DNA of 64,000 bases from positions 44,480 to 108,479 of the IMG/VR virus record IMGVR_UViG_3300025769_010106; one strand, written 5' to 3'. The notes under the pieces are model-generated. The model had not been told where the DNA came from. It saw only the letters and a list, made by a program, of their open reading frames with translations, and made no database searches. Shown here piece by piece: positions 1,898-21,327 of the stretch. Origin of the DNA: a virus. A program made the translations under genes and the position numbers. The stretch's first letter is position 1; every line of letters begins with the position of its first letter.

Positions 1898-2181
1898 TGG
1901 GCGGCGATAAATCATTTGCTAATATTGAAAAGATATTAACCAAGTATGAAAATGAAACTAACAGGTTGGAATTGGTTATTCATGCTGCTCAACTTGCAAG
2001 ATCCAAAAAGATTTCAGGACGAGCTGCATTAAATGTTTTAGAAACAGAAACTATTAATTTAAAAGATTTAGACGAGCAACTGATGGATAAACTACAGAAA
2101 CAAATCCAGAAAGACAATAAAGAAAAAGAAAGCAAAAAGGTAGATTCAGATGATCCACCTACACAACCTAAACAGACTTAA
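1897..2181 (+). CDS. hypothetical protein
   Basis: AGGAG SD, TAATG coupling, 94 aa. Confidence 0.65.
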   Translation: MGGDKSFANIEKILTKYENETNRLELVIHAAQLARSKKISGRAALNVLETETINLKDLDEQLMDKLQKQIQKDNKEKESKKVDSDDPPTQPKQT

Positions 2182-3142
2182 TAAAGAATTAAATACTGCT
2201 TTAATAAAAGCTAACGACCTGGTTCTAAAATCAGGTCGTGTCATGATGGGTGAATATACACTGGAGTTTGAAAGCAGAATAGCAAAAGTATCTGGAGCAA
2301 ACTACGCATGTGTAGTAGGAAGTGGAAGCGACGCTCTGTTGTATGCGTTAGTATCTAGTAACACTACAGGACTTGTTGGCATGCCTGCTCAAACTTTTAT
2401 TGCTACTAAAAATTCTATTTTAAGAGCTGGATGCATACCTTATTTGGTAGATGTAAAGAATAATGCTCTATTAAATTGGGATTTAATTCCAAACAGTGTT
2501 GATTGTGCTGTATGGGTTGGGTTATTTGGTAACTCTGAACCTCTACCTGATAACTTATTTGTAATAGAAGATGGAGCTCAACATTTTGGAGCAAGGCTTC
2601 AATCCAATATTGCAACATATAGTTTTGATCCTACAAAAAGTCTACCTAACTTTGGCAATGGCGGTGCAGTTGTTAGCAACGACAAACGTGTTATAGACAA
2701 TGTAAAACTTTTACGCAGACATCAAATAGTAAATGGACACACGGGCGGCAACAGCATAATGAGTGAACGTGAGTGTGCTGAAATGTGTGTTAAGTTAGAT
2801 TACTTTCCTCTTTGGCAAGAGCGTAGACAGGAGATTGCTAGAGATTATTACACACATTTAGGACATCTTGTAAATTGTGTCACTCAACTAGATGGACAGA
2901 TAAGCAAGTTTATTATTGAAACAACTATGCGGGCTGACCTACAAAAATACCTATCTCACAAACATATAGAGACCAAACGTGCCTATGAACATCCAATATA
3001 CGAATTTGACCAGGCATCCAAAAACTGTAAAAGATTTCTACAATTACCCTGTGATCCTTATATGACTGATGAAGAACTGTTAGCTGTTATAATGGCTGTC
3101 AAAGAATTCTTTGAGGAAAGCCCACTCGAAAGTTTGCTGTAG
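2150..3142 (+). CDS. DegT/DnrJ/EryC1/StrS PLP-dependent (sugar) aminotransferase
   Basis: EFESRIA..GSGSDAL, TFIAT, IEDGAQHFG, SFDPTKSL (PLP lysine), GNGGAV, LQLPCDPYM. Confidence 0.9.
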   Translation: MIHLHNLNRLNKELNTALIKANDLVLKSGRVMMGEYTLEFESRIAKVSGANYACVVGSGSDALLYALVSSNTTGLVGMPAQTFIATKNSILRAGCIPYLVDVKNNALLNWDLIPNSVDCAVWVGLFGNSEPLPDNLFVIEDGAQHFGARLQSNIATYSFDPTKSLPNFGNGGAVVSNDKRVIDNVKLLRRHQIVNGHTGGNSIMSERECAEMCVKLDYFPLWQERRQEIARDYYTHLGHLVNCVTQLDGQISKFIIETTMRADLQKYLSHKHIETKRAYEHPIYEFDQASKNCKRFLQLPCDPYMTDEELLAVIMAVKEFFEESPLESLL

Positions 3143-5389
3143 ATCATTTCCATCTTCAACATACTTGACAGCATCCTCAGCACCTCGTACACTCCACTTA
3201 CCATTCTCTCCATTACCAACTGTAGTCCATTGCTCTAGTCTATAACGACTTTCAATGTCTGACTGTTGAGTAAGTTTTACACATTCGCGGAAGGCTGTAC
3301 GCCAAGTTTCATATGGCGTGGTGTTAAAGTCTGCTGTACTTGCTATTACAGGAACAACTCCGTGTCTAGCACTTAGCGTAAAGTCTAGCCCCCATTCAGT
3401 AGCATCCAATACCATTTGTTTGTGGTACGCAATAATACCCATGTGTCCATACTCTAATCCATTAACAGGATTACGACTGTGGAATATCCAATGCTTGGGG
3501 CCTTGCAGCCAATCTGGTTGCCAGTTAAAATTAAAGTCAGGTTCTACAATACACTTAGCAAATACGTTAAAGAACCAGGGTGTCTCACTGATCTCTGCAC
3601 AGGCCTTATATGCTTCTGCTCTACCCGTTACACCATCTATGCGCTTGGCTCTAGGGCACATACACTTGAGTAGAAACCAGTTTTTATCGGCGTTTTTTTC
3701 ACCATTACTAAGATACACAACATCTAGTAGTTTTTCTTCTATATTATAGTCATTATGACGCAATATGTATGGGTAGTCATAGAATTGAGTAGAAAAATGC
3801 TGTTTACAGTCCCTAGGCACTAGTAGTACGCTACCGCTCTGTGTAAAGACGTGCAGATCGGGTTTTTTCCAAAAACTAGGAACATAGTCCAAAGATTTAG
3901 TGTCTGTATTCAATATCCAACTATATGACTGTGTAACTTCATGTAGTGCATTAACTGTGGGCCAGGGTCTATAAGGGACTGTAACATCCTCTACGTAGTT
4001 TATAGTATCAAACCACCCTAAAACTTTTAGGGTACTGTGTTGACTCTTAAAACGCTCCACAGGGACTAAAAATGTATCACCCTCACGCTGATTACAGCTA
4101 GGGAATACATGTAGCATATCCTTCTGCCAGGGTTCCGGTTCCCAGCCAAAATCAAAGTTAGTGTAATCACAAGTGCTACTCGTAACCCATATATACTCGC
4201 TATCTGTACGCTCGCATATTCTTCCCAGAGTTTCTAACCAGGTACTGAAAAATCTAGTTGTTTTATGATCTAGATCAGGTGTAAACTTATATCCATTACC
4301 AAAGTCTACATATACTATTTCTCTGTTGTCATCAAATAATTCTACCGTTTGATCTTCAACAAAGTTTAATTCTGGAAAGTCTTTAACATCCTCAAACCAA
4401 GGTACCAGTCGTAGGAATTCAAGTCTTGGTACTCTAAACACATTAGCCCATTTTTGAAACTTGCTGCCAAACACATGTATCATGTTGCTTTGCCAAGTTT
4501 CTGGATACCATCCAAAGTCAAAGTCTGTGTAGTCATAGTCACTGCTGACTATCCACACAAAATCACTATTACTATTTTCACAAGCCTTTTTAATAATACT
4601 GGCCCAGTTGCCTACACCTCTAATTTTACGAGCATTTGAATCTTGTGCTAATACTGTGTCAAAACTTTTTTTGTTGTTTTTATTAAATTGGTCTACAACA
4701 AAAATATCACTAGTGATCTTGCTTTTAACCTGTTGCACACTTTCATACTTGATTTCACTAGCACCAGGTGTGTGATATTCAGGACCGCCTTGTCTAGCCC
4801 ATTTACTACCAAACACATGAATGTAACTGTCGGACTTTCTTGGATGCCAACTAAAATCAAAATTATCCAAATCAGCGTTTGGTGGCACATGCCAATTGTT
4901 TAAATTTTCTAGTGCTGTTGATCGTTGCACACTTTCATATTTTATTTCACTAGCACCGGGTGTATGATATTCAGGACCTCCATCAGGTTGCCATTGTGTT
5001 CCAAAAACATGAATATAATTTTCATTTGGATCTGGATGCCAACTTAAATCAAATTTGTTGGTGTCAATGTTTGAAGGTATTTGCCAGTTGTCAACACATG
5101 GCAGTCTAGTTACACGTTGATCTTTCATGTAGTGTAAAGGACCAGGATTGTGTTTGGGTGTTAGATAAACTTGTCCGTCTTGTTGCCATTGACTGGGCCA
5201 TACATACACATGATCATGCTCCCAGTGCGGAGGCACCATGTCAAAGCGAAAATCTGTGTAGTCATTTTGACCCGATAAATACCAGCAGTATTCAGTACGA
5301 CTTTGCTGTTGTGCTGCTTCAATTGAATCTGCAGGCTGCTCGTGAGCAAATAGATTAGGCTTAGAACCTGTATAGAAAACATCAAACAT
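3080..5389 (-). CDS. 769-aa repeat-built glycosyltransferase-like protein
   Basis: About seven FDFxWxP..W....HVF modules; C-terminal domain aligns by eye with the 17543..18469 protein (KRIDGVTG, NGLEYG, AFRECVK). Confidence 0.6.
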   Translation of the reverse strand: MFDVFYTGSKPNLFAHEQPADSIEAAQQQSRTEYCWYLSGQNDYTDFRFDMVPPHWEHDHVYVWPSQWQQDGQVYLTPKHNPGPLHYMKDQRVTRLPCVDNWQIPSNIDTNKFDLSWHPDPNENYIHVFGTQWQPDGGPEYHTPGASEIKYESVQRSTALENLNNWHVPPNADLDNFDFSWHPRKSDSYIHVFGSKWARQGGPEYHTPGASEIKYESVQQVKSKITSDIFVVDQFNKNNKKSFDTVLAQDSNARKIRGVGNWASIIKKACENSNSDFVWIVSSDYDYTDFDFGWYPETWQSNMIHVFGSKFQKWANVFRVPRLEFLRLVPWFEDVKDFPELNFVEDQTVELFDDNREIVYVDFGNGYKFTPDLDHKTTRFFSTWLETLGRICERTDSEYIWVTSSTCDYTNFDFGWEPEPWQKDMLHVFPSCNQREGDTFLVPVERFKSQHSTLKVLGWFDTINYVEDVTVPYRPWPTVNALHEVTQSYSWILNTDTKSLDYVPSFWKKPDLHVFTQSGSVLLVPRDCKQHFSTQFYDYPYILRHNDYNIEEKLLDVVYLSNGEKNADKNWFLLKCMCPRAKRIDGVTGRAEAYKACAEISETPWFFNVFAKCIVEPDFNFNWQPDWLQGPKHWIFHSRNPVNGLEYGHMGIIAYHKQMVLDATEWGLDFTLSARHGVVPVIASTADFNTTPYETWRTAFRECVKLTQQSDIESRYRLEQWTTVGNGENGKWSVRGAEDAVKYVEDGNDLQQTFEWAFLKEFFDSHYNS
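4732..4978 (-). repeat. intragenic direct repeat, 55 nt, 192-nt period (GPEYHTPGASEIKYESVQ x2)
   Basis: 4732-4786 vs 4924-4978; only four mismatches, peptide unchanged. Confidence 0.9.
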
Positions 5390-6446
5390 GTATAATTTAG
5401 AAACCTTTTATCCTACTATCAGCACATGGTTTAGACGCAAATATGACCATTTGGAACCTGCTGTGGTATACCCTTATCCATATGGCAGTGAACATCCAGA
5501 AGATACTGTGTTTGACAGTGCTTATGAATTTCCTAAGACTGTGTTACTATTATACGATCAAGAACCTTTTTGGTCAAGTATTCGTTGGCTAGATCATTTT
5601 GCTGAAATGTTTGCTGATTGGGGCTCAACAGTAATACTTATTACCACACAAGAATGGGGCACTAATTTAGACTATTATGTTAAAAACTTTAATTGGAAAC
5701 ATGTTTGTTACCAGCACCACCTGTTAGCATGCAGAGATTGGTATAGGGGTTATAGAAATCATCCACAACTGGTTTCACCTCAACAACGAAAACTTTATAA
5801 TCATTTTGTATGTTATAATAGACTTTTTGCTGAAAATAGACCACATAGAGTTAATCTTCTTAAAGACCTATATGATGATAACATACTATGCAAAGTTGAT
5901 ATGAGTTTTCCTGCAACTGATCCTATTACAAATAGTTCTTATGCAGATATATCTGGTCGTAGTGATATACAGTTTATTCTACCATTAGACATAGACGATC
6001 CCAATCATAACAACAATAGTTTTACTTTAGATATACAATCTGCTAATGAAACTGCTATACATATTATTACTGAAACTATTTTCAATATTAAAGAAAATTA
6101 TCTAAGCGAAAAAAGTTATAAACCTATTGCCCTTAAACAACCATTTATAATATTTGGCGCTCCCTATAGCCTTAAGACTTTGCAGGATTTAGGATTTAAA
6201 ACTTTTGCTAATTTTTGGGATGAAAGTTATGATAACATTGAGGACCATGATCTAAGATACAGCAAGGCATATAAAATTGTTAAAGATATTGCTAGCATGT
6301 CATTAAATGATATTCAAAATATTCTAATACAGTCTACGGATATTCTTGAATATAATTATAACCATTTTTATGCACAGGAAACTTTGGATAATATAGTTAA
6401 TAATCTATTTTTAGATATTACTAAGGCCGCTAGTTACGTAAATTAA
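5388..6446 (+). CDS. putative glycosyltransferase (GT10/fucosyltransferase-like C-terminus)
   Basis: CYNR..RPHR, IITET, LSEKSYKPI, PFIIFG, GFKTF..WDESYD; AT-rich and opposite strand to its flanks. Confidence 0.55.
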   Translation: MYNLETFYPTISTWFRRKYDHLEPAVVYPYPYGSEHPEDTVFDSAYEFPKTVLLLYDQEPFWSSIRWLDHFAEMFADWGSTVILITTQEWGTNLDYYVKNFNWKHVCYQHHLLACRDWYRGYRNHPQLVSPQQRKLYNHFVCYNRLFAENRPHRVNLLKDLYDDNILCKVDMSFPATDPITNSSYADISGRSDIQFILPLDIDDPNHNNNSFTLDIQSANETAIHIITETIFNIKENYLSEKSYKPIALKQPFIIFGAPYSLKTLQDLGFKTFANFWDESYDNIEDHDLRYSKAYKIVKDIASMSLNDIQNILIQSTDILEYNYNHFYAQETLDNIVNNLFLDITKAASYVN

Positions 6447-6447
6447 A

Positions 6448-6891
6448 TCAAACATCTATTTGTTCCACTGGTATATTACATTCTTTTAAAAACTCTAGTC
6501 CATCGTTTAATCGGTAGGGATGAACATAGAATATTTCCTTAATACCTGCTTGATATAAGCCTTTAGAACATTCCATGCAGGGCTGATGTGTTATAAAGGC
6601 ACTAGCACCTTCGCCACTTTCAGTAGATCGGGCCAACTTCATAAGAGCATTCATTTCCGCGTGAAGTACTTCTGGTTTGGTCACTAACTCAACATGATCC
6701 GCAGTGCCATTGCCTGTCATAAATTGTGTCTCACATTCATTAGTCCAGCCGCTGGGCATGCCATTATAGCCAATGCTAATCACACGATTGTCTTTTACAA
6801 TCACACAGCCAACCTGTAGTCTAACCGCAGTACTACATTCGGCATATGCAAATGCAGCCTTCATGTGAGCTACTTTGTGTTTTTCCTTCAC
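6448..6891 (-). CDS. dCMP deaminase
   Basis: HAEMNAL and PCMEC zinc motifs; VGCVIV..IGYNGMPSG; GTG start at 6891 preferred over ATG at 6912. Confidence 0.95.
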   Translation of the reverse strand: MKEKHKVAHMKAAFAYAECSTAVRLQVGCVIVKDNRVISIGYNGMPSGWTNECETQFMTGNGTADHVELVTKPEVLHAEMNALMKLARSTESGEGASAFITHQPCMECSKGLYQAGIKEIFYVHPYRLNDGLEFLKECNIPVEQIDV

Positions 6892-6955
6892 CAGCCTATG
6901 CCTCGTCGCCATCTCATTTTATATAGTTTTACTAAAAGTTTGAATAACATAATCT

Positions 6956-7315
6956 CTAAAATCCTAAATCCATTCTCCATGGATACATTGTATAGCCAAG
7001 AGGACGTAAGACGAACTCTTCAAACAGTACGATTAAAACAATACCAAATACCCATTGTACCCAACGTGGCCAAGTTGTTCGCCAACGTGTAAAGGGACGC
7101 AATATCCATGCTAATATATTGGTTACCTTACCCCAGAACCAATCACCTACACTAAAGGGAGGAACTTTCCACAGTACTACAGGAACTATTAACCACCATA
7201 TCCACTGTGGATAGTCGTCATTGGGCTCATCTATTACAATCATTAGAACCAGTAGTGCTAGTAGGTATGCACCAATCCATTTTTTCATATGTGCTAGTTT
7301 ATGTTTTTCTTTCAT
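6956..7315 (-). CDS. Trp-rich membrane protein
   Basis: Three hydrophobic segments; first 11 codons duplicate the dCMP deaminase N-terminus. Confidence 0.7.
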   Translation of the reverse strand: MKEKHKLAHMKKWIGAYLLALLVLMIVIDEPNDDYPQWIWWLIVPVVLWKVPPFSVGDWFWGKVTNILAWILRPFTRWRTTWPRWVQWVFGIVLIVLFEEFVLRPLGYTMYPWRMDLGF

Positions 7316-7609
7316 TTAAAATATACCTATCATTAGTTTAGTATCTTCCGGTATAAGATCAGGTCCCCACTGTGGTTCCCATACAAGTTCACGTTCTACT
7401 TCTGTCACACCGTCAACATTTTTGCAGGCTTGGTATATGTCTTCGCATATTTGATCGGCAAATGGACACATAAAACTTGTTAAGCTATGCTTTACATGAA
7501 CTTTAGTTTTTTCTATTTCTATACTATATATCAAACCCAAATCGTAAACATTAACGCTTATCTCTGGATCATAGACAAGACGTAGTGCTTCTATTATCTT
7601 ATCTTTCAT
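7316..7609 (-). CDS. sufT: DUF59 / SufT-PaaD-like Fe-S cluster maturation protein
   Basis: DPEI.VNVYDLGLIY, LTSFMCP, LVWEPQW motifs. Confidence 0.9.
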   Translation of the reverse strand: MKDKIIEALRLVYDPEISVNVYDLGLIYSIEIEKTKVHVKHSLTSFMCPFADQICEDIYQACKNVDGVTEVERELVWEPQWGPDLIPEDTKLMIGIF

Positions 7610-9087
7610 GAGCAGACCTTCACACCATACTGCTTTTCAAAACGATCTGCGTCAGCACGATCATTTACCATGGGCTCGCCACGGATGTTTAGGCTAGTGT
7701 TTAATAGCATTGGGCAGTCTGTCATTACATACCACTTTTCAAGTAGGTCCCTTGCGCCAGTACGATCATCCTTGCCTACTGTTTGTACACGACTGGTGTT
7801 GTCATAATGTACTATTGCAGGGAATAGATCTGGACGCTTACATTTATAGGTAAACTGCATATAGGGACTCGTATCCAGTCTGGGCATATCAAAATAATCG
7901 TGTGCATGCTCCTCTAATATCATAGGAGCAAAAGGTCTGAACTTTTGTCTGCGTTTGATCTCGTTAACACGGTCTTTTATATCATCGCCGCGTGGGTCAG
8001 CAAGTAGACTGCGATTGCCCAGAGCACGTGGGCCAAACTCTGCACGACCACTTGCAACTCCTACAATACCTTCACGCTGTAGTTCGCCAATAATTTCTTC
8101 ACTGGGATATTCACCGGGAATGTTTGTTCCCAGATATGGCCCTTGCCAGTTTAAACGTTTGCCATATGCAAGAGCAGCAGCACCTAAACTACTACCACAG
8201 TCGCCAGGGTTTGGCATAACCCATAGTCTATTCCAGATATCACGAATCGCACTATTTGCAACACAGTTAAGAGCAACACCCCCCATGAACACGCAATCAT
8301 CAATATCAGTATTTGTAATACTTAATTGATGCATTGCCGTTCTGAGCATGCCTTCAGTGATCATTTGTGCAGCTCTGGCTATTTCTTCGATTGTATATTC
8401 ACTGGCGAAACTGTCTTCTACACCAACGTGAAAATTTCGTTTAAAAATCTGTTTATGTTCATTATCTAAACTACCAGTAACAACCTCGCGATATGCATTT
8501 GGAGATCCATACGCTGCCATACCCATGAGAATATATTCTTCTTCCATGGGTTTTAAACCACAACGCTTGGTCATTGCGCTGTAAAACAATCCTAAACTAT
8601 GAGGGTAGCGACGTGTATAAATCCTTTTATATTGTGCCCGACCTTGGTCATCGTATTCAGCACGATATGTTGACCAACAGTCCCATTCACCAATAGCATC
8701 TATTACTACCACAACAGCACGATCAAAGGGTGATGTTTGAAACCCTGCCGCAGCATGACTTAAATGATGTCCTGAGTATTTGTCTACTTTAAGTCCGTAT
8801 GGTTTTAATTGTTTAGTAGGACTAGGGTCACCAAACACTTTACGCCACTCACCACTATATAGTTGACGTGTTTTTTTCAGCCATGGACGTTCATACCAAG
8901 CAACTAAATCAGGCGTACCATAACCGAGTGCCTCAGCCATAATGCCTTCATTTAGTGTAGCATCATTTTTAACTTTACTATAGCGTTCGCTGTGACCTGC
9001 AAAAAGTATATTGCCTCTACTGTCCACGACACTGACACCAGCATCATGAAAGCCTGCACTCACGCCCATGTATGTTTTAAGTTTCAT
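7606..9087 (-). CDS. NodU/CmcH/TobZ-family O-carbamoyltransferase
   Basis: GFHDAG, HHLSHAA, DAIGE, MGMAAYG, GGVALNC, EFGPRALGNRS, FRPFAP, SRVQTV, LLNTSLN. Confidence 0.96.
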   Translation of the reverse strand: MKLKTYMGVSAGFHDAGVSVVDSRGNILFAGHSERYSKVKNDATLNEGIMAEALGYGTPDLVAWYERPWLKKTRQLYSGEWRKVFGDPSPTKQLKPYGLKVDKYSGHHLSHAAAGFQTSPFDRAVVVVIDAIGEWDCWSTYRAEYDDQGRAQYKRIYTRRYPHSLGLFYSAMTKRCGLKPMEEEYILMGMAAYGSPNAYREVVTGSLDNEHKQIFKRNFHVGVEDSFASEYTIEEIARAAQMITEGMLRTAMHQLSITNTDIDDCVFMGGVALNCVANSAIRDIWNRLWVMPNPGDCGSSLGAAALAYGKRLNWQGPYLGTNIPGEYPSEEIIGELQREGIVGVASGRAEFGPRALGNRSLLADPRGDDIKDRVNEIKRRQKFRPFAPMILEEHAHDYFDMPRLDTSPYMQFTYKCKRPDLFPAIVHYDNTSRVQTVGKDDRTGARDLLEKWYVMTDCPMLLNTSLNIRGEPMVNDRADADRFEKQYGVKVCS

Positions 9088-9185
9088 TTGTAGATAAAAG
9101 GGTCCCTACGTCTCAACTCTTTTAGTCGCTTGCGATACTGTATCTCAAGTTTAATTCTGTTAATAAGGTTGCGAATCCAACGCAT
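9084..9185 (-). CDS. 33-aa basic peptide (MRWIRNLINRIKLEIQYRKRLKELRRRDPFIYK), absent from the ORF track
   Basis: AGGAG SD upstream; TGA overlaps the carbamoyltransferase ATG (ATGA); fills the intergenic gap. Confidence 0.8.
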   Translation of the reverse strand: MRWIRNLINRIKLEIQYRKRLKELRRRDPFIYK

Positions 9186-9197
9186 TATATTCTCCTG

Positions 9198-9422
9198 TTA
9201 TTGTCCGTACCAGTTATGTATTCCAAGGAACGCTGCGCCAAAGTAAAACATCTCCATTAGCATCCTAGGCATGTCACGATCTTTATAAGCAAAGTATGCC
9301 CATGCGGCGCAAGACACACTACTGAGTGCCCATCCCATCCATTGTATGCTGACTATGCCACTTGTTAAAATAAACAATGCTGTAACAGCACCCACAAACC
9401 CCAACCATCTTTGTATTCTCAT
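9198..9422 (-). CDS. small membrane protein
   Basis: Three hydrophobic helices; start overlaps the upstream stop. Confidence 0.7.
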   Translation of the reverse strand: MRIQRWLGFVGAVTALFILTSGIVSIQWMGWALSSVSCAAWAYFAYKDRDMPRMLMEMFYFGAAFLGIHNWYGQ

Positions 9423-11750: not shown

Positions 11751-12312
11751 CTGCTAATGGAAATTCAAATTTCCCATCTGCTGCTTTCCTAAACAAGTCC
11801 GATACCCACTGATGCCATTCTGGTGCATAATGATGTCCCAATTTACTGATTGGCCATCGGTCGGGATGGTCGATATAGGGTATCAGATCATAAAGAGTCA
11901 TATCAATCAAGCGACATTGATTCTGCTCACAAATTGATTTCAAATCTATTAGATTCCTAGAAAAGTTTTTCCTACACCAGTCATCGTCGTGTGTTTCCAT
12001 AAAATAGATTCGATTACTGCATGTAGGAAGACTCTGATAAAACTTTCCATCTTTTTGATATTCAAATCTACTCCAATCTGGCCAAAGACAGTAGACTATG
12101 TTTGGTTTATGTTCCGGTACGAGATCTTGTGCCAGACGAACAACCTGATCACCGCTGGCTGATCCAACCCCAAAATTCTTAGCCCCTAACAGATAAGGCC
12201 AGGTTTCGTTGTTTTCTACTCCAACACCCCAGGTATGGCTGCAACCAAATGCTATAGAATCCGAATTGGTGATTTTATTCCTAAATTTCAGTGGATTTTC
12301 ACTCATAGCCAA
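11743..12312 (-). CDS. SGNH/GDSL-like esterase or O-acyltransferase
   Basis: AFGCSHTWG (block I), ETWP, NFGVGSAS (block II), C-terminal GHH. Confidence 0.6.
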   Translation of the reverse strand: MAMSENPLKFRNKITNSDSIAFGCSHTWGVGVENNETWPYLLGAKNFGVGSASGDQVVRLAQDLVPEHKPNIVYCLWPDWSRFEYQKDGKFYQSLPTCSNRIYFMETHDDDWCRKNFSRNLIDLKSICEQNQCRLIDMTLYDLIPYIDHPDRWPISKLGHHYAPEWHQWVSDLFRKAADGKFEFPLADE

Positions 12313-13532: not shown

Positions 13533-14847
13533 GAGCCGGCTCCAGTTCAGGAAAAGTTTTCCAGAAGTCTTCTTTTCTGAAGTTATCTAATTTTGCTACT
13601 TCAAATTCAAATCTTTCCCAGTTTTTTTCATAATTATCCTTAGCATTTAAGAAACTTATTACACCTTCTAAACCAGTTGATGCCCTGTTAAGTGAATCTT
13701 GAGGTCTTAACCATTCAATATGCTTCCTATATGCAGGTTCAATAACTTCCTTCTTAAACCAAGTTGGGAATATATCTATTCTGTACCAATCAGGACTTTG
13801 ACATATATTAATATTTAAGTCTTTAGGTTGTATGAACCCACGCTCTACCCAATCACGATGAAAATCAAGCACATGTAATACATTTTGACTTGTAATAGTT
13901 GCACTAATATAGAAGTCTATATGTGGAACTTCTTCAATCATTCTCTGTCTGTTTTCTTCTGTTTTTTTCCACACGGCACCCTTGCGTATTAGTTCCCCTT
14001 GTTTGCCCATTCCGTCTAGACTTGCACCAATACTAACATTATTAAAGTGTTTCCAATACTCTATGACATGTTTGTCTTTATATCTAAGTTCACTAAAGTT
14101 AGTGTTATATAGTAAACGTACATTTGTCTTTCCATGCTCGATAAGTTTTTCAAGTAGATAATAATGCTCTTTCATTATAAGCGGTTCGCCGCCTGCAAAA
14201 TATACTTGTTCTAAGTATGGTATATGCTTTTCCATTTGAGCGATCATACCATCTTCATCACCAGTCGTATATTCAACTCTTGCCATATCTCTGCCAAGTA
14301 CATCTGGTTTGACACCATAGAGTCCTATATAATCCTCATACCAATTACTACTAAAAATAGGGCCACAACTTCTACATTTAAAATTACAGAGGTTACTAAA
14401 CCTAACATCCCAGTATCTTATTTTAAACTCATCATGGTTACCATCTTGACTTGTTTTATCAAGGTCCTTGATTAAATGACCATAGTTACGATTAGCATCA
14501 TTACGCATACTGAAGAAACCATTTTCTTCTTGTTCATAACATTTACCACATTCAACACAAGTATTTTCTTCCATCATGTTCTTGCGTAATCTTTTATAAC
14601 CTTCTTGATTCCAAACTTCCTCCATTGTATTCTTTCTTAGATCACCAACTGGATGCCAGTAATCAGCAAAACAACAGGGATATGCTCTGCCGTCCGGAAA
14701 CGCATGCATATGTACCCATGGAAGCATACAGAATCGTTTGCTCTCAATGAGTTTAAATTTTTCGTCTTCAGTTAATTTTTCTAATTCAATGAAGTGTGGT
14801 TTACGTTCATCATATTTGAAATTTTTGTAAAAGTCCTTGTTAGACAT
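13519..14847 (-). CDS. radical SAM enzyme with N-terminal twitch domain
   Basis: CNFKCRSC, AGGEPL, YNTN, ASLDG; CMLPW..YPCC..CGKC. Confidence 0.92.
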   Translation of the reverse strand: MSNKDFYKNFKYDERKPHFIELEKLTEDEKFKLIESKRFCMLPWVHMHAFPDGRAYPCCFADYWHPVGDLRKNTMEEVWNQEGYKRLRKNMMEENTCVECGKCYEQEENGFFSMRNDANRNYGHLIKDLDKTSQDGNHDEFKIRYWDVRFSNLCNFKCRSCGPIFSSNWYEDYIGLYGVKPDVLGRDMARVEYTTGDEDGMIAQMEKHIPYLEQVYFAGGEPLIMKEHYYLLEKLIEHGKTNVRLLYNTNFSELRYKDKHVIEYWKHFNNVSIGASLDGMGKQGELIRKGAVWKKTEENRQRMIEEVPHIDFYISATITSQNVLHVLDFHRDWVERGFIQPKDLNINICQSPDWYRIDIFPTWFKKEVIEPAYRKHIEWLRPQDSLNRASTGLEGVISFLNAKDNYEKNWERFEFEVAKLDNFRKEDFWKTFPELEPARAKP

Positions 14848-16186
14848 TCTGATACCAATCCTTCAATTCTGGAAATACTGAGATTAAGTCCTTTTTTCTA
14901 CGCACGTCATACTGACTATAAAACTTTTTAAAGTCATTGTGTAGTTTAGGCATTTCAAATGCTTCACTGTGCGGTGTTTCTACTGTACGCAAATATGTTA
15001 CCAGTCGTTCCAACTGTCCTTGTTCAAACTGGTGCATGGGTGTACTACGGTTAAGAAACTTGGGTGCCCAGCGTTTGTATAGGTCTTCCAATTTATCAGC
15101 GTGACGATTGCGTATATCCAATGGAAGTACTAGTGCCGACTGGAAACTTGGAAAGCGTAATATATTTAAACTGAATACTGCAAAATTATTCCCTAACAGT
15201 CTTCTTGTTTGTAATATTTGCTCGATTAGGTCTGGTAGTGTCTCCAAGCACAGCGCATTAACTGTCATCATGCAATGTGTGCCAACGCCTGCCTCACTCA
15301 ATCTGCAAATATTTTCCCACCAATAGTCCCAATCTAATCCGTCACGTATATATTCTGCAGGCGCCCCTACTGCTTCACAACTGGTGTAAACATCCAAGCT
15401 AGGCAAGTAATTACGAGCATCAATTAGTCTGTCAATTAACTCACCCTTGCCTCCTAAGTTACTATTAATAGCAAGTTTGGTTTGGCTTTTGTCTGCGTTT
15501 GCTTTGAACCAATCTATTAAACGCCACAAGTCTGCGCTCATTGTTGGCTCACCGCCGGTAACTCGTAGTTCACGTAATGTTTTATGTAAGTCTGTATCCC
15601 ACCATTTAAAAAATGCTTCTACGTAAGGATTTCTATCCTCCACCCCATAAAGCTGGCTACTACTATGAACGTGAGTAAAGTGGTTACGGCCATCACTAAC
15701 AAGGCCCTTATAACTGCCATTTGTTTTTAGGTCCTTTACCCATGTGGTGCTAAAAGCAGGATTACAGTAACTACAAGCAAAATTGCAGGTACGATCAAAT
15801 GCAATTTCGAGTGTACGGAGATTGACGTCAATATCATGCGGGCTATTTCGTGCATCTTGTAATTCCTCATCAGTATATATCTTGCTCTTATATACACGGT
15901 CACTTATAAAATTAGGACCCATATCTTCAATTTTCCAACAATACTCACAGCCGGTTGGACGCTCTCCACACTGCATTTGTCGCCGCTGTTCTTTTTTCTC
16001 TGGTGTATTGTGTAACAATTTTGGATTAGTTTCAACAGCAACAGGATCTACTTTATGTGGTAATGGATGATGGCAACTAGTAGTCATGCCAGATCCTAAC
16101 CAGATAGTAGCATTATACCATTTAGCACCACAAAAGGTCGGACTAAGTTTGTCTAGAACTTCCTGTTTATAAATTAAGTCATCCAT
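14840..16186 (-). CDS. radical SAM enzyme with N-terminal twitch-like domain (SCHH type)
   Basis: CNFACSYC, TGGEPT, INSN; FCGAKW..SCHH..CEYC. Confidence 0.92.
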   Translation of the reverse strand: MDDLIYKQEVLDKLSPTFCGAKWYNATIWLGSGMTTSCHHPLPHKVDPVAVETNPKLLHNTPEKKEQRRQMQCGERPTGCEYCWKIEDMGPNFISDRVYKSKIYTDEELQDARNSPHDIDVNLRTLEIAFDRTCNFACSYCNPAFSTTWVKDLKTNGSYKGLVSDGRNHFTHVHSSSQLYGVEDRNPYVEAFFKWWDTDLHKTLRELRVTGGEPTMSADLWRLIDWFKANADKSQTKLAINSNLGGKGELIDRLIDARNYLPSLDVYTSCEAVGAPAEYIRDGLDWDYWWENICRLSEAGVGTHCMMTVNALCLETLPDLIEQILQTRRLLGNNFAVFSLNILRFPSFQSALVLPLDIRNRHADKLEDLYKRWAPKFLNRSTPMHQFEQGQLERLVTYLRTVETPHSEAFEMPKLHNDFKKFYSQYDVRRKKDLISVFPELKDWYQNV

Positions 16187-17546
16187 TTGCTATATACCTA
16201 CATTCATCCCAAAATTCTCTCATCTCAGGAAATGTTTGTTCAAAGTTTGTGCCGCGGCGACGATCATGCTCACTAAAAAATCTATAAAAGTCTGCTCTGC
16301 GCGTGTCCACATCACTTACATTATCCACACCCTGCATCCAGACTAGATCACGTCTCATCTTTAGTACTTCGTAGTCCTTAAATCCGTGCATCTCATCTAA
16401 ATTTGATTCCATAAATTTTATACAGTCTTTAAGATATAACTGATATGCCGGAGTTAATATCTGCATACTTTGCCATTCAGGAGTATACAGTAATGGAGTA
16501 TCAAACCAAATACGCTGATAACTTTTGGTATAAGTCTTGCGAAGGTATAAAATATATTCTAGCAGTCTTTTCAAACTAATAATATTAAGATTACTCATAG
16601 TAATTATTAGAGTTAAACTACTGCGATAGGGAATGTCGCGCACAAATCTTTCTATGCGTGACTTACAAAGTTCAAAGTCAAGTCCATGTCTAATATATTC
16701 AGCCTGTGCACCCCAGGTATCTAAGCTAACAAACTGCATGAAGTGTTCAATCTTTTCACCCTGTGTAAGCTGATGTATATAACCCATATAGTTTTCAAAA
16801 ATATAATCATCTGTACTAAAGTTACTAGTAGTGTTTAAATGCAAATCTTTTTTAGGATTATCAAGCACATAATCAAACACACGATAGGTATTTGGATCCA
16901 TGGTAGGTTCGCCACCAGTCATACGAAAATGTTTTAGGTCTTTGTATAGATCAGGCCACCAACGCCAGAATGCTTCACGGTATGGATTGGCATCTTTATT
17001 GGGGATTGGTTTGCGTTCACCAATAAAATGTGCAGGATCATTATGTGGTGTGCTAGTAGGATAAGAACCATACTGCTTGGCTTCGCGTTCCCAGGTACTA
17101 CTAAACTGTGGGCTACAATAACTGCACTTCAAATTGCAAGCGTGATTAAAGTTAACTTCTACATAACTTGGATTTACATCTGCTTGTGGATTTGCTACAA
17201 TATCAGCAAATGATTCCATAGCCCAGGGTTCACCACTGCGATAATGACGATCACTGATTGCGTTAGGTTGACTTTCAATATTCCAACAGTAGTTGCATTC
17301 AGTACACTTGACACCCTGTATCATTTCAGCACGGCGCTCTTTCTTATGTGCAGTATTATGCAGGGCACTTGGATTGTCTGCAAGCGGCTCAACAGGAATG
17401 CGATGCAGTGGGGGATGGTAGCAACTATTGGTATGTCCGGTTGTTAAGTGTAGACTAACCTGTTTCCATTTAGCCAGGCAGAAACTATCGCTCACAGTAG
17501 CGAGTTTATACTTTGCTATATTAGCATCAAAAAGGTAATCACTCAC
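16179..17546 (-). CDS. radical SAM enzyme with N-terminal twitch-like domain (SCYH type)
   Basis: CNLKCSYC, TGGEPT, VSLD; FCLAKW..SCYH..CNYC. Confidence 0.92.
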   Translation of the reverse strand: MSDYLFDANIAKYKLATVSDSFCLAKWKQVSLHLTTGHTNSCYHPPLHRIPVEPLADNPSALHNTAHKKERRAEMIQGVKCTECNYCWNIESQPNAISDRHYRSGEPWAMESFADIVANPQADVNPSYVEVNFNHACNLKCSYCSPQFSSTWEREAKQYGSYPTSTPHNDPAHFIGERKPIPNKDANPYREAFWRWWPDLYKDLKHFRMTGGEPTMDPNTYRVFDYVLDNPKKDLHLNTTSNFSTDDYIFENYMGYIHQLTQGEKIEHFMQFVSLDTWGAQAEYIRHGLDFELCKSRIERFVRDIPYRSSLTLIITMSNLNIISLKRLLEYILYLRKTYTKSYQRIWFDTPLLYTPEWQSMQILTPAYQLYLKDCIKFMESNLDEMHGFKDYEVLKMRRDLVWMQGVDNVSDVDTRRADFYRFFSEHDRRRGTNFEQTFPEMREFWDECRYIANG

Positions 17547-18469
17547 CAGCCTTCGGCCTTTCTAATAACTTCTATTTCTGTAGTCATAGGATCGTATGCA
17601 TGATAGGTTTGACTATAATAGTGCTTGAAGAATCTACTTTGTTCTGGTGTGTAATCAACGATTGGTAATTCAAGTTTACGTCTTAGTATAGCACCATATT
17701 CAGTAAAGTTTTCATCCCCAATATCCCATTCTTCTTCCCAAATTCTATCCAAACTAGCAAAGTCTCTAACTTCATGCCAGTCCCAATCAGTACACATTAG
17801 TTTATATGTACCGTACCTAGCACCATACATTGCCTCAAACCCATATTGTGCGTCAGCACCAACACTGTGCCAAACACAGAGCTTGTCAAAGTTTTTAGCA
17901 TGTACCTGTTGCTTAAATTCTTCTACAGTAGGCTTGCGTCCTTTGTTAAGGCACATCTTAACGCCTTCTCTAAAACCAGCACGGAACGCATGTCTAGCAC
18001 TACCATTAGGATATGTAGTACTATAAACATTGTTCATTGCAAGATACTTGTCGTCAAAGCAAAACTCTACTACAGTTTCATCTGTACCGTCAGTTGCTTC
18101 ATGTGTCTGCATATTATTAACAAACTCACGTGTCCAGCAACTAAGTCCACCGTTGCCATACATAAGCCCGTTTATATTATTGCGAGCTTTCCAACGAAAC
18201 ACGCAATCAGCATATTCCTCTTTTATATCTAATACAAGATTGAAAAACGATTCATCAGGTATGTTGTCACCGTCTATGAGAACAAAGCGTTCTGTTTCAC
18301 TTACTGCTGCCGCTGCTTTGTGTGCTGCATCACTTCCTTGCACACCATCCACACGTTTGGCCCAGGGAACCATATTTTGGATTTGAATCCAGAACTCTTC
18401 CTTTTTAGGTTCGTCAAATGAAAGATAGATGCAGTCTAGATCTGCAATATCAATTATTTGTCCAGCCAC
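17543..18469 (-). CDS. putative GT-A-fold glycosyltransferase
   Basis: FVLIDGDN (DxD) after AHKAAA helix; YGNGGL; paralogous to the C-terminal domain of 3080..5389. Confidence 0.6.
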   Translation of the reverse strand: MAGQIIDIADLDCIYLSFDEPKKEEFWIQIQNMVPWAKRVDGVQGSDAAHKAAAAVSETERFVLIDGDNIPDESFFNLVLDIKEEYADCVFRWKARNNINGLMYGNGGLSCWTREFVNNMQTHEATDGTDETVVEFCFDDKYLAMNNVYSTTYPNGSARHAFRAGFREGVKMCLNKGRKPTVEEFKQQVHAKNFDKLCVWHSVGADAQYGFEAMYGARYGTYKLMCTDWDWHEVRDFASLDRIWEEEWDIGDENFTEYGAILRRKLELPIVDYTPEQSRFFKHYYSQTYHAYDPMTTEIEVIRKAEGW

Positions 18470-18684
18470 TCGTGCAACCTTGCTACATCTTGGTCACTGT
18501 CTATACATACACGAATACCACGTGCATACACTGTGCGGTCTAGTTCATAGCTAGAACTAAATGACTGTTCACAAAACAATTTTAGCTCTGTGAATAGTTC
18601 TTGATTGTCTCTAAATTGAGCATCATAAATTATATCACCTGAATTTGCCACATGTGGTAGAGGAACATATACTTCATTCTGCAT
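18454..18684 (-). CDS. hypothetical protein
   Basis: AGGAG SD; overlaps both neighbours. Confidence 0.65.
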   Translation of the reverse strand: MQNEVYVPLPHVANSGDIIYDAQFRDNQELFTELKLFCEQSFSSSYELDRTVYARGIRVCIDSDQDVARLHEWLDK

Positions 18685-18991
18685 TTTCTATCTCCTTTAT
18701 ACAAAAATATGGATTATTTTTTAATGTAATTGCTGGTGTGGCTTGCCAGTAAACATGGACGGCTGTATCTATATCAACGATTTTGCCATCCTGAACACGC
18801 TGTCTTATAGGATATACCAGTGTATCCTCTGATATAACGATATAGTCTTCAGTCCAGTGTTCAGCTTTATTTACATGACAATAGTTAATAATTTCACCAG
18901 TTTCTTTATTGTAGCGCAAACGAACCTCAAGTTCAACCTTAGTGCGATTGCCTAATAATTCAACTATTAATTTTTTTAACTCTGTACTCAT
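18674..18991 (-). CDS. hypothetical protein
   Basis: 105 aa, overlapping operon gene. Confidence 0.65.
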   Translation of the reverse strand: MSTELKKLIVELLGNRTKVELEVRLRYNKETGEIINYCHVNKAEHWTEDYIVISEDTLVYPIRQRVQDGKIVDIDTAVHVYWQATPAITLKNNPYFCIKEIENAE

Positions 18992-19808
18992 ATCTATCTA
19001 TCAATTCTGGAGTGCAAAATGTTTTATCGTAATAGTGGAATGGATACTGTTGTGCATATCCGCCTACAATTAAATCAAAATCGTCTGTTAGTGTCCATGA
19101 TACAGCATCCTGCCAGCGCATACTATTCTTCCAGTTATTAATTGCCGGCTTCATATGTGTAAACGTCGGATAACTTAATTTATTTGAACAAGGTATTCCA
19201 AGATTTAACTGTGCTAGCGCATAAAGAACATCAGTGTCAGGTTTGTCATAGATACTATACTCAAGAACACTGTCACGCAACTCAGCCCAATGGTGTATCG
19301 CCTGCTCAATAGCTCTACAGAAGCCCACACTAGTCCTACTGTACCTAAAATATGAAAACCCATTATAAGCATCATCAAGCTGATTGGCATCAAAAAACTT
19401 CCTGTAGTAACGTGTTTGGGCAATATTACCCTGGTAATCTCTTACACTATTAGTATAGCACACATCATTTAATCTACAACCGTTCCACCAGTGATCCAAA
19501 CTGCGAGGAATAATCATGTCACTTTCTACTTTAAATGTTTCCTTAAAGGGTGTAACATTTATAATCCATGCTTCGTTGTAGAAAGGTTCTGTGCGTGGTA
19601 CTGTAATTATGTGATCAAATATCTTACGTTGCTGTTCTGTAATAGTTGCCTCAGATTCAGCATCAACTACTACGGCAAATCTGTTGTGCTTACAAGTTGC
19701 CTTTACGCTTAGAGCAAGTAAGTAGGCGAGGTCAACATAGTTTGTTGCCTTACTGTTCTGTGCAAATGTTAGCCAACCCTGTGGCTCATCCTTGGGTTGC
19801 ATACGCAT
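18960..19808 (-). CDS. putative GT8-like glycosyltransferase
   Basis: YVDLAYLLALSVK, TPFKETFKVESDM (DxD-like), FSYF, PDTDV, HMKP; paralogous to the next ORF. Confidence 0.6.
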   Translation of the reverse strand: MRMQPKDEPQGWLTFAQNSKATNYVDLAYLLALSVKATCKHNRFAVVVDAESEATITEQQRKIFDHIITVPRTEPFYNEAWIINVTPFKETFKVESDMIIPRSLDHWWNGCRLNDVCYTNSVRDYQGNIAQTRYYRKFFDANQLDDAYNGFSYFRYSRTSVGFCRAIEQAIHHWAELRDSVLEYSIYDKPDTDVLYALAQLNLGIPCSNKLSYPTFTHMKPAINNWKNSMRWQDAVSWTLTDDFDLIVGGYAQQYPFHYYDKTFCTPELIDRYEYRVKKINS

Positions 19809-20571
19809 CTAGTGCTCCGTATATTTCTGGGTCCTGTAAACAGGCTTTGTTCATACAGTGTAAGTTTACGCCTTTGAGTTTAACAGCATTATACTTGTCA
19901 CCGTCTTGATAGCGTATGCGTAGTTCATCACCTTTAGCAGAATAGATAGTGTCCATTGTGCTTAAACTACCCAGTGGATGATTAAAGTAAGTACCACTAG
20001 CATAGCCATTCATAAGCTGATGTGCAATAGTTAGACTAAAGTCATTGCGATATTTGCCTGCTACAAATCCCCAAAACTTTGCGTAGTAACGCCAGTTGGT
20101 CTGTACGTTTTTCATCATTTCAAATATATTATGGGCTAGGTCGCACTTGCGAAAGTAAACGACCGTAGCCCATAACATTGGATGGCCGGCCCTGGTCATC
20201 CTTTGATCGTTACGGAAACTATTTGTGGAGGTAACATCCCATACACGATCATAACATAAAAACTCATTTGCACTACCAAAGTACTGTTTTAGATTATCAT
20301 TAAACGTAAGGTAGTCTACGTCTATTAAGAGTGTTTCATCATAAGGGCTTAAATCATATGCCAGTGTTCTATCACTGTTATACCATGGCACTGTAACAAC
20401 TTGACCATCATGCCAGCGGAACGCTCTAGTATTGCCTGGCTGTGCTTCACCTACATGTATGTGTGTTTCAATGTCTAAATGTTTTTCTACAAGTTTTGCC
20501 GCTAGGTTAGCAAAACCCGTATAGTCTATTGTTTCATGTGGTGTAGCAAGTAAGAGTGCGCCCTTACTCAT
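19786..20571 (-). CDS. putative GT8-like glycosyltransferase
   Basis: SPYDETLLIDVDY (DxD), WATVVYF, YRNDF, HCMNK. Confidence 0.65.
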   Translation of the reverse strand: MSKGALLLATPHETIDYTGFANLAAKLVEKHLDIETHIHVGEAQPGNTRAFRWHDGQVVTVPWYNSDRTLAYDLSPYDETLLIDVDYLTFNDNLKQYFGSANEFLCYDRVWDVTSTNSFRNDQRMTRAGHPMLWATVVYFRKCDLAHNIFEMMKNVQTNWRYYAKFWGFVAGKYRNDFSLTIAHQLMNGYASGTYFNHPLGSLSTMDTIYSAKGDELRIRYQDGDKYNAVKLKGVNLHCMNKACLQDPEIYGALDAYATQG

Positions 20572-20968
20572 TAATACGTTTCCTTAAATCACTTGTACTA
20601 AAACGATGCTCTCTTTTATTAAAATAAAATTCTATACCTCGTTTTGCACATATGGCTCTTCCAGTAAACTTTCCATCTCTATATTCTTCGCCAAGTATAC
20701 GAACATTAATATGATACATTGACAAAATATCTTCTAAATCCTGTTCAGTGCAGTAGGGAACAATTTCGTCTACGTATCTTACTCCCTTTAGTTGTGTATA
20801 ACGTTCAACCACAGTTTGAACTGGCTTGTTCTTTTCCGGTCTATCAATACTAGGATCAACCTGTAATCCGCATATTAGGTAATCGCATTGTTCTTTTGCT
20901 TCACGTAACATTTGCACATGGCCAGCATGTAAAAGATCAAACGCAGATGCTGTAAATCCTACTCTCAT
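20564..20968 (-). CDS. cytidylyltransferase (TagD/RfaE-like)
   Basis: FDLLHAGH (HxGH), YVDEIV, RFSTS. Confidence 0.92.
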   Translation of the reverse strand: MRVGFTASAFDLLHAGHVQMLREAKEQCDYLICGLQVDPSIDRPEKNKPVQTVVERYTQLKGVRYVDEIVPYCTEQDLEDILSMYHINVRILGEEYRDGKFTGRAICAKRGIEFYFNKREHRFSTSDLRKRINE

Positions 20969-21291
20969 AGTTGTTCTACACGTCTAACCTTTTTTAATTC
21001 AGCATGCTGATTGTGCCAATCGTTCATTACTTCGTACCAGCGTTGTCTACATTGTACTAACATGTCACAAGCATCTGTAATCTTTACTGGATTATCGTAG
21101 TCGTCTACGAGATATAGCAGTTCATCTGCTGGCCATGTTGCTAGTAGAGACATTAGTTCTACTGTAACTTTAAACTGTCCACCATCATATGTGATAGTGA
21201 GACGCTGTTCCTGTTGTTCTTTAAGAGCCAAGCGTTGACGATTGTGGTCAAGACGCTGGCGTGCGAATTGTTCGAATGTTTCTAAGGTCAT
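20965..21291 (-). CDS. hypothetical protein, first gene of the modification operon
   Basis: ATG at 21291 lies 7 nt after a -10 box; the track's 21327 TTG start falls inside the -35 box. Confidence 0.7.
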   Translation of the reverse strand: MTLETFEQFARQRLDHNRQRLALKEQQEQRLTITYDGGQFKVTVELMSLLATWPADELLYLVDDYDNPVKITDACDMLVQCRQRWYEVMNDWHNQHAELKKVRRVEQL

Positions 21292-21298
21292 GTAAGAT

Positions 21299-21327
21299 AG
21301 TATAACAGGGCTATATAGCCCTGTCAA
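21299..21327 (-). promoter_or_regulatory. sigma70-type promoter with 20-bp perfect palindrome over the spacer
   Basis: TTGACA-17-TATACT; ACAGGGCTATATAGCCCTGT at 21305-21324. Confidence 0.8.

Follow-up and report, generated by a model that had tools for sequence, protein, structure and literature searches.

The right-hand 64 kb (64,000 nucleotides (nt), hereafter the window, the numbering of which is used throughout unless a locus is named) of the 108,479-bp phage contig IMGVR_UViG_3300025769_010106 contain a minus-strand run of 21 coupled genes (6448-21327), among them genes for five radical S-adenosylmethionine (SAM) enzymes of a single family. With moderate confidence, this operon can be interpreted as a phage-encoded cytoplasmic pathway that assembles a sugar chain, edits it chemically and carbamoylates it. 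The families of the genes, the conservation of the block, and the glycan context and gene fusions of the bacterial relatives are established, and it is from these that we infer every chemical step as well as the acceptor. The contig is estimated by CheckV to cover ~31% of the phage genome and therefore is a jumbo-phage fragment; a baseplate protein, a SegE-type nuclease and Mre11/Rad50-like genes are its T4-like traits.

From 21327 down to 6956 on the minus strand, neighbouring genes overlap or are separated by gaps of at most 12 nt, and a 43-nt gap precedes the terminal dCMP deaminase gene, which bears out the tightly overlapping operon described in a first-pass annotation made from the sequence alone. 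Family searches likewise confirmed all of its five radical SAM enzymes, carbamoyltransferase, SufT and cytidylyltransferase, whereas its roughly five glycosyltransferase (GT)-like proteins and SGNH protein are right in outline, with weaker support than the other families. Two genes that it counted as members, one encoding a protein of 769 amino acids (aa) and the other, on the plus strand, a 352-aa protein, are separate transcription units. The aminotransferase does belong to the DegT family (PF01041, with the catalytic lysine retained) but is not part of the operon, being the plus-strand gene at the end of the thyX operon. A 33-aa gene (9084-9185) had been overlooked, and a sixth radical SAM gene (54258-55403) lies outside the stretch that the annotation described.

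The radical SAM enzymes belong to the NCBIfam family NF033640 (N_Twi_rSAM; curated cut-off, 170 bits) and are as follows:

16179-17546, minus strand: N-twitch radical SAM enzyme, 455 aa, subtype A (306 bits; orthologues at 55-60% identity)
14840-16186, minus strand: N-twitch radical SAM enzyme, 448 aa, subtype A (304 bits; its orthologue is gp202 of phage RsoM2USA)
13519-14847, minus strand: N-twitch radical SAM enzyme, 442 aa, subtype B (391 bits; orthologues at 62-70%)
12303-13532, minus strand: N-twitch radical SAM enzyme, 409 aa, subtype B (360 bits; orthologues at 49-55%)
10473-11750, minus strand: N-twitch radical SAM enzyme, 425 aa, subtype B (294 bits; orthologues at 60-65%)
54258-55403, plus strand: sixth N-twitch radical SAM enzyme, 381 aa (232 bits; BLASTP matches to the five operon paralogues)

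All six copies exceed the cut-off (294-391 bits in the operon, 232 bits for the sixth) and share with the family a Cys-rich, twitch-like N-terminal domain, the CxxxCxxC motif and the GGE motif. The order of the Pfam domains is peculiar in that SPASM lies N-terminal to Radical_SAM; the N-terminal Cys ligands are retained in every copy, and C8, C73, C76, C123, C127, C130 and G193-G194-E195 are invariant in nine aligned sequences. The paralogues are only 20-31% alike (31% between the 455-aa and 448-aa proteins), whereas each of them has its own orthologue at 49-70% identity, so the five copies are old and non-redundant; judging from these identities, the array appears to be ancient, with each copy probably kept for a job of its own. 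NF033640 is a named family without an assigned reaction, and the phage operon holds an array of at least five of its old paralogues. Among characterized enzymes, BtrN, NeoN and DesII perform radical SAM chemistry on hydroxyl-bearing carbons of sugars or aminocyclitols, BtrN and NeoN with the help of an auxiliary cluster. Their auxiliary domain, where present, is C-terminal, in contrast to the N-terminal one of the window enzymes, and no significant sequence match to any of the three was found, the weak secondary matches being to MoaA, viperin, NirJ and SkfB. A viperin-like role in the production of nucleotide analogues was considered and rejected, given that the viperin model, which has a cut-off of 180 bits, yields no more than 23-38 bits.

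The sixth copy lies on the plus strand in a region (52788-58873) where Mre11-like and Rad50-like genes flank it together with a gene for a 156-aa protein; a seventh radical SAM protein, of the radical SAM-SPASM type with the canonical domain order, is encoded at 57782-58873. The 156-aa protein matches only the first 33 residues of the short-chain dehydrogenase/reductase (SDR) family and the 198-aa protein encoded after Rad50 matches the C-terminal two-thirds, so that the two may represent a split SDR.

The module is conserved as a block. Comparison with ten related IMG/VR contigs of 27-207 kb (each locus taken ~10 kb to either side of the match) shows that the set stays together: the order fibre, fibre-like, small gene, two GT8-like genes, GT-A-like gene, radical SAM run, 357-aa gene and carbamoyltransferase is kept in all ten at 43-70% identity. 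Into the run of the relatives are inserted further N-twitch radical SAM genes, GT10-like paralogues, UDP-Glc/GDP-Man dehydrogenase and hexapeptide acyltransferase genes, as well as genes for a class-III aminotransferase, a B12-radical SAM enzyme and SGNH proteins. The DegT, cytidylyltransferase and SufT genes have no tblastn match (E <= 1e-5) in the ten loci and hence are accessories of the window phage. Uncultured large phages carry the module very often, its 308-aa component alone having more than 8000 scored relatives. A megablast search of the operon against phage records gave no match.

A published study (PMC7029224) has already described the gene neighbourhood itself, which it counts towards the 'host recognition cluster' of pelagimyophages. 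This pelagimyophage/cyanomyophage cluster is, like the operon, a variable region beside tail-fibre genes, and it holds GT8-type glycosyltransferase, rfaE-like and UDP-glucose dehydrogenase genes together with 'radical SAM cassettes'. The same study gives gene content only and proposes O-chain modification for such GT8-rich clusters; the conserved module of radical SAM enzymes, carbamoyltransferase and peptide is not defined there. The first-pass statement that no characterized pathway has this make-up accordingly stands with respect to pathways, none having turned up in literature searches, and has to be amended with respect to the neighbourhood. Nor did the searches turn up any account of the module as defined here, of the peptide within it or of what chemistry the radical SAM family performs.

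NF033640 is rare in the bacterial genomes sampled: besides the query genomes, family-level matches were found in 2 of the 400 genomes of Pseudomonadota and 4 of the 400 of Bacteroidota. Beside dnaE and accA on a Pseudomonadota chromosome, the gene order is rmlC-rmlD-wzm-(Wzt-radical SAM fusion)-three more N-twitch copies, followed by genes for a TylF-type O-methyltransferase, a methyltransferase and a WbsX glycosyltransferase. The fusion is:

L034:8579-11143, minus strand: 854-aa protein made up of Wzt, with its ABC ATPase and its carbohydrate-binding domain Wzt_C, and an N-twitch radical SAM enzyme (genome G104, contig 19)

One further bacterial locus has an epimerase and a GT2 enzyme as radical SAM neighbours; elsewhere the neighbours are a GDSL protein, an MT-GT2 fusion and a GT-C-like protein, or a Maf-like/GT1 protein, and in metagenomic sequences N-twitch radical SAM enzymes are fused to GT2, EryCIII-like GT1 or methyltransferase domains. 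Because bacterial copies occur within loci for polysaccharides or as fusions with Wzt, GT2 or GT1, the family on balance seems to act on sugars or glycoconjugates. The fusions of the bacterial members thus point to glycan substrates and make the reaction of the family testable, the Wzt-radical SAM fusion being a candidate system for finding it. Taken with the sugar genes inserted into the operons of relatives, this context makes the 'unusual decorated glycan' of the first-pass annotation the best-supported reading, and one that is so far partly supported.

The bacterial context also bears on the nature of the acceptor. The enzymes might remodel the host envelope, acting on undecaprenyl-linked O-antigen or capsule intermediates at the inner membrane face, with host exporters displaying the product and superinfection being blocked, an explanation that we consider doubtful. 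The only bacterial copies with a clear pathway belong to an ABC-transporter-type O-antigen locus, one of them being Wzt-fused; the phage operon, in contrast to such Wzm/Wzt loci, has neither a transporter nor a lipid-carrier enzyme. Family searches of the operon matched no Wzx, Wzy, Wzm, Wzt or polyprenyl-phosphate transferase, and the GT-like proteins have no long hydrophobic stretches on reading, which fits a cytoplasmic acceptor. There is no membrane-anchored enzyme in the operon, and the relatives do not share its two small membrane proteins. A role in the envelope has already been proposed for the glycosyltransferases of the pelagimyophage cluster (PMC7029224), and the early-type, sigma-70-like promoter at the head of the operon (see below) would suit it. 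However, such remodelling would cost a lytic phage a great deal, and the module spans phages of probably very different hosts and O-antigens, from those of the aquatic contigs to a Ralstonia phage.

The carbamoylation step is represented by one enzyme, the gene of which is coupled to that of a conserved peptide:

7606-9087, minus strand: O-carbamoyltransferase of the TobZ/NovN/GdmN/NodU class, 493 aa (Pfam and PDB matches)
9084-9185, minus strand: previously unannotated 33-aa basic peptide ending in DPFIYK (ATGA overlap with the carbamoyltransferase start)

Both the Kae1-like N domain (PF02543, Carbam_trans_N, 109.8 bits, E 2.5e-31; cut-off, 24 bits) and the YrdC-like C domain (PF16861, Carbam_trans_C, 170.6 bits, E 3e-50; cut-off, 27 bits) exceed their Pfam gathering scores. 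Matches in the PDB range from E 4e-48 (7xb6) to 1e-30 and include NovN, GdmN and TobZ; both catalytic domains of the characterized enzymes (3ven, 9s2t, 7vzq, 7xb6) are covered over residues 104-480. The window protein is shorter than these enzymes (493 vs. 576-702 aa) and, unlike in the known systems of this class, is preceded by a gene for a 33-aa peptide. The NodU equivalog model NF041651 yields 133.7 bits, far below its cut-off of 1000, and the protein therefore is of the same enzyme class but is not NodU itself. Its orthologues in the related contigs are 57-59% identical.

The peptide is present in 9 of the 10 related loci (L002 and L004-L011; there is no match in L003), with W3, E14, Y17, R18 and the final DPFIYK invariant, and is under purifying selection given that pN (0.20) is lower than pS (~0.83). 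In relatives its gene lies between two SGNH-like genes, directly upstream of the carbamoyltransferase. The same linkage is found in the cultured Ralstonia jumbo phage RsoM2USA, which has a reduced module (gp203-gp199) in the order gp203 SGNH-like, gp202 N-twitch radical SAM, gp201 SGNH-like, peptide, gp200 SGNH-like, gp199 carbamoyltransferase. Here gp202 (L048:2832-4148) is 53% identical to the 448-aa window copy and gp199 is 46% identical to the window carbamoyltransferase. The peptide gene is unannotated in this phage as well:

L048:5014-5136 (record ~125,891-126,013): RsoM2USA peptide open reading frame (ORF), in the gap between RsoM2USA_201 and RsoM2USA_200

The genome paper of RsoM2USA makes no mention of the module genes. 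A Kyanoviridae phage with a 36%-identical carbamoyltransferase has neither the peptide nor the radical SAM genes nearby. The peptide is likely to be a small partner of the carbamoyltransferase. With its arrays of radical SAM enzymes from a family that has never been assayed, the module becomes accessible, through its reduced form in RsoM2USA, to genetics and to chemical study of virions, DNA and infected cells.

The peptide could instead be the substrate or carrier of a pathway similar to those of ribosomally synthesized and post-translationally modified peptides, in which the twitch radical SAM enzymes would modify the C-terminal Phe-Ile-Tyr-Lys and the GT8-like enzymes would glycosylate it. 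Small peptides are common substrates of SPASM/twitch enzymes, and in mycofactocin the tail of a peptide is processed by a radical SAM enzyme and later glycosylated. The purifying selection, the six invariant terminal residues and the presence of the peptide beside a radical SAM enzyme and a carbamoyltransferase even in the reduced module of RsoM2USA are compatible with such a pathway, as is a Bacteroidota locus that pairs the radical SAM family with dioxygenases and not with glycosyltransferases. Yet the phage peptide gene always adjoins the SGNH/carbamoyltransferase pair and not the radical SAM run, and the strongly basic, helical peptide resembles a small subunit more than a leader-bearing precursor. 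In bacterial radical SAM arrays no such peptide was seen among the ORFs inspected, a systematic search not having been made. All in all, we regard this explanation as unlikely.

A further partner is suggested for the radical SAM enzymes themselves:

9419-10492, minus strand: module-specific 357-aa protein (95 invariant columns in nine sequences)

In a natural fusion, P0143 (787 aa), an N-twitch radical SAM enzyme (residues 1 to ~430) is joined to a domain 32% identical to the 357-aa protein (residues 436-781), in the same order as that of the two window genes, the 425-aa radical SAM gene overlapping its neighbour by 20 nt. Because P0143 fuses both proteins in the window gene order, the 357-aa protein is most likely the partner of one N-twitch radical SAM enzyme. 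Its AF2 model (pLDDT 76.5, pTM 0.77) has no Foldseek match, the Atlas search gave no usable match, and VIA indicates only a likeness to cyclophilin-like barrels at Z 7-8, which is inside the stated noise band of the tool. A profile search of bacterial genome contigs recovered only short contigs of metagenome-assembled genomes, probably binned phage DNA, and thus added no bacterial context.

The remaining candidates for sugar transfer, acyl transfer and auxiliary functions are the following:

18960-19808, minus strand: GT8-like protein A (glycogenin-like), 282 aa, conserved in nine loci
19786-20571, minus strand: GT8-like protein B, 261 aa, with the motif D-V-D, conserved in nine loci
17543-18469, minus strand: predicted GT-A-fold protein, 308 aa, with the motif LIDGDN (structure model)
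3080-5389, minus strand: 769-aa protein with an N-terminal repeat unit 'FDFSWHPDP...IHVFG' (read in the sequence) and a C-terminal domain
5388-6446, plus strand: GT10-like (fucosyltransferase-like) protein, 352 aa (Atlas lead; separate transcription unit)
11743-12312, minus strand: SGNH-like protein, 189 aa, with block I GCSHTWG (linked through the GDSL protein of a relative)
7316-7609, minus strand: SufT/DUF59 Fe-S assembly helper, 97 aa (PF01883, E 1e-17)
20564-20968, minus strand: cytidylyltransferase-like protein, similar to RfaE domain II/TagD (PF01467, E 7e-14)
2150-3142, plus strand: DegT/DnrJ/EryC1 aminotransferase, 330 aa, last gene of the thyX operon (PF01041, 138.7 bits, E 4e-40)

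The profile of the 282-aa family matches glycogenin-1 (GT8) in many PDB entries over residues 4-111 (E 0.017-0.03); the 261-aa and 282-aa families are paralogues (hhalign probability 98%), and neither has a Pfam match. The 308-aa protein has more than 8000 metagenomic homologues, none of which is named. In Foldseek searches with its AF2 model (mean pLDDT 64) nearly all matches are to GT-A or nucleotidyltransferase folds, with E values from 6e-3 (ArnC, PBCV-1 A64R, GtrB), and in VIA all 50 of the 50 matches are to GT-A-fold sugar-nucleotide enzymes (Z 5.7-7.1); the DGD of the family is invariant. Judging by the model, the protein would be either a sugar nucleotidyltransferase or a glycosyltransferase. 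Its domain recurs at the C-terminal end of the 769-aa protein (BLASTP, 32% identity, residues 555-706 of the latter vs. 11-172), which has orthologues of 554 aa in L009 and L010. For the 352-aa protein, without a Pfam or PDB sequence match, the nearest named Atlas clusters are Glyco_transf_10 (score 0.79, a lead only); a TETxF...FLTEKxFKPI block is conserved in this family, paralogues of which sit inside the radical SAM run in relatives. PDB sequence profile searches with the 357-, 308-, 261- and 352-aa families returned nothing significant. The 769-aa and 352-aa genes start head to head with a 2-nt overlap at 5388-5389, which leaves no intergenic room for their promoters.

The 189-aa protein has no direct Pfam match and is placed through its BLASTP similarity (E 3.5e-6) to the product of L004:17844-18581, itself matching DUF6071 and Lipase_GDSL. 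SufT scores 104 bits with TIGR02945, under the cut-off of 143, and the cytidylyltransferase is likewise under the cut-offs of TIGR02199 (E 8e-21) and TIGR01518 (E 4e-17). In the DegT protein the lysine that binds pyridoxal phosphate is retained, its 'SFDPTK' aligning with 'SFYPTK' of 7b0d. Elsewhere on the contig (positions 21240-28020 in the numbering of the contig; L013:4240-11020), a second nucleotide-sugar cassette, encoding an NAD epimerase/dehydratase, a UDP-glucose dehydrogenase, a PurT-like ATP-grasp protein and a short DegT protein, adjoins genes for FolE and a YhhQ/Vut_1 transporter; the combination is similar to the Ugd/ArnA/ArnB scheme by which an amino-formyl pentose is made.

Combined, these families suggest the following course for the proposed glycan pathway. 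Soluble GT-A, GT8-like and GT10-like transferases would build a chain from nucleotide sugars, supplied in part by the phage through the cytidylyltransferase, the DegT protein and the UDP-glucose dehydrogenase/epimerase/PurT-like/DegT cassette elsewhere on the contig. Each of the five N-twitch enzymes would make a different change to a sugar, initiated by hydrogen abstraction (epimerization, oxidation, deoxygenation, or C-C/C-methyl chemistry), and at least one of them would work with the 357-aa protein. The SGNH-like protein would add or remove an O-acyl group, and the TobZ-class enzyme, with the 33-aa peptide as its likely small partner, would O-carbamoylate a hydroxyl, with SufT helping to load at least 10 Fe-S clusters. 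Synthesis of an aminoglycoside-like small molecule was considered and rejected: no inosose synthase was seen, and the DegT gene lies outside the conserved module.

Whether the acceptor is a virion component depends in part on the relationship between the operon and the fibre genes behind which it lies. The first-pass annotation placed the operon directly behind these genes; the adjacency holds, but transcriptional continuity is doubtful, since a strong hairpin and a sigma-70-like promoter lie in between:

21297-21334, minus strand: hairpin (-19.9 kcal/mol; z -5.1) starting where the gene for the fibre-like 315-aa protein has its stop codon

The promoter overlaps the hairpin and consists of TTGACA (21327-21322), a 17-nt spacer and TATACT (21304-21299), with TG before the second hexamer (11/12 match). 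Five relatives have a hairpin of other sequence in the same place, in several of them followed by a U run, and a TTGACA/TATAAT-like element can be discerned by eye in 4 of the 6 relatives compared (L002, L004, L006 and L010). Generic promoter and terminator counts show no excess over shuffled sequences. The T4 late-promoter motif TATAAATA occurs in the window only at 28111 and 51947, and not at the operon. The enzyme operon would thus be shielded, at least in part, from late transcription of the fibre genes, and its promoter is probably of the early type; the argument from co-expression with the fibres is therefore weakened. The first of the two late motifs (28111-28118) directly precedes the gene for a 1202-aa fibre protein, and a single 4444-aa ORF (28126-41460, minus strand) adjoins the same motif. 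The 1202-aa protein and a 488-aa protein share a C-terminal domain with a weak match to intramolecular chaperones (Peptidase_G2).

A virion protein, such as one of the neighbouring fibres, nevertheless ranks first among the acceptors, and we propose it tentatively; next comes a glycan intermediate of the host envelope, which is possible at best, then by a peptide or free small molecule, an improbable acceptor, and then by DNA, which is less probable still, with the rest of the probability falling to something else. Virion glycosylation encoded by viruses has a precedent in chlorovirus PBCV-1, where soluble GT-A enzymes operate in the cytoplasm; one PBCV-1 enzyme, A64R, also came up in the fold searches with the 308-aa protein. 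To our knowledge, virion glycosylation in PBCV-1 and mycobacteriophages involves no radical SAM or carbamoyltransferase step. Glycans of mycobacteriophage capsids and tail tubes have been reported (Freeman et al., 2023, as cited in PMC12619734). A more specific and rather improbable variant of the glycan pathway is that the GT8-like enzymes prime the glycan on a tyrosine, of either the DPFIYK peptide or a virion protein, whereupon the N-twitch enzymes, at least five in number, would rewrite it residue by residue before carbamoylation. The module would then be a new type of 'radical glycan editing' system that acts after assembly. If this were true, large phages of aquatic and soil environments would bear a surface or carrier-bound glycan with sugars from no known pathway.

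DNA would be the acceptor if the sugars were placed on a modified base and then edited, as anti-restriction armour. A phage enzyme of the NodU/CmcH type can carbamoylate 5-hydroxymethylcytosine; the operon ends with the dCMP deaminase gene and faces thyX, its promoter appears to be of the early type, and FolE and YhhQ accompany the nucleotide-sugar cassette on the contig. The first-pass annotation saw no dCMP hydroxymethylase in the window, and the absence extends to the whole 108-kb contig, which has no match to PF00303, that is, to a thymidylate-synthase-like hydroxymethylase, and none to TGT, although with a contig ~31% complete this is weak evidence. A search for Tet/JBP (PF12851) found nothing, and its control was also silent in every genome, which makes it uninformative. 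The bacterial relatives of the radical SAM enzymes lie in polysaccharide loci, not in DNA loci, and we know of no precedent for five radical SAM steps on DNA-bound sugars; modification of DNA accordingly appears very unlikely.

Several observations weigh against the proposed glycan pathway. Literature searches turned up no assay or known reaction for NF033640, and the glycosyltransferase assignments are weak, resting on an E value of 0.017 for the glycogenin match, a Foldseek E value of 6e-3, VIA Z scores of at most 7.1 and an Atlas score of 0.79. An early role linked to nucleotides would suit the sigma-70-like promoter and the neighbouring thyX and dCMP deaminase genes no less than a role in the virion would, and the peptide, invariant and with a tyrosine, is similar to the small substrates on which peptide maturases of the SPASM/twitch type act. 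Moreover, the Bacteroidota locus mentioned above (L045:2114-15104, genome G480) encodes two N-twitch copies, five PhyH-type 2-oxoglutarate (2OG) dioxygenases, a WelO5-like 2OG halogenase and a methyltransferase, with a fibre-like protein secreted by the type IX secretion system and carrying an endosialidase-chaperone domain as neighbour; it is devoid of any glycosyltransferase and fits the modification of a protein or peptide.

The other genes of the operon are small and, except for the deaminase, without a clear family:

6448-6912, minus strand: dCMP/cytidine deaminase, last gene on the strand (PF00383, E 2e-20)
6956-7315, minus strand: 119-aa membrane protein (ORF, hydrophobic sequence)
9198-9422, minus strand: 74-aa membrane protein (ORF, hydrophobic sequence; weak PnuC-like match, E 0.0016)
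18454-18991, minus strand: two small genes, for proteins of 105 aa and 76 aa (ORFs only)
20965-21327, minus strand: first operon gene, no assigned function (120 aa with the listed TTG start)

The 119-aa protein has no family match in Pfam or PHROGs, and the 74-aa protein has no match in the related loci. Neither the 105-aa nor the 76-aa protein is matched in Pfam, nor the former in PHROGs, and their place in the relatives is taken by a single ORF of 121-141 aa without detectable similarity to them. A PHROGs search with ten uncharacterized proteins yielded nothing useful. The deaminase belongs to nucleotide metabolism and is not a tailoring gene; seven loci have it at this end of the block too, and it is near-identical in L004, L005 and L011. 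The true start of the first operon gene is probably the ATG at 21291, which would give a protein of ~108 aa, and its orthologues in nine loci have 104-107 aa and are 30-51% identical to it.

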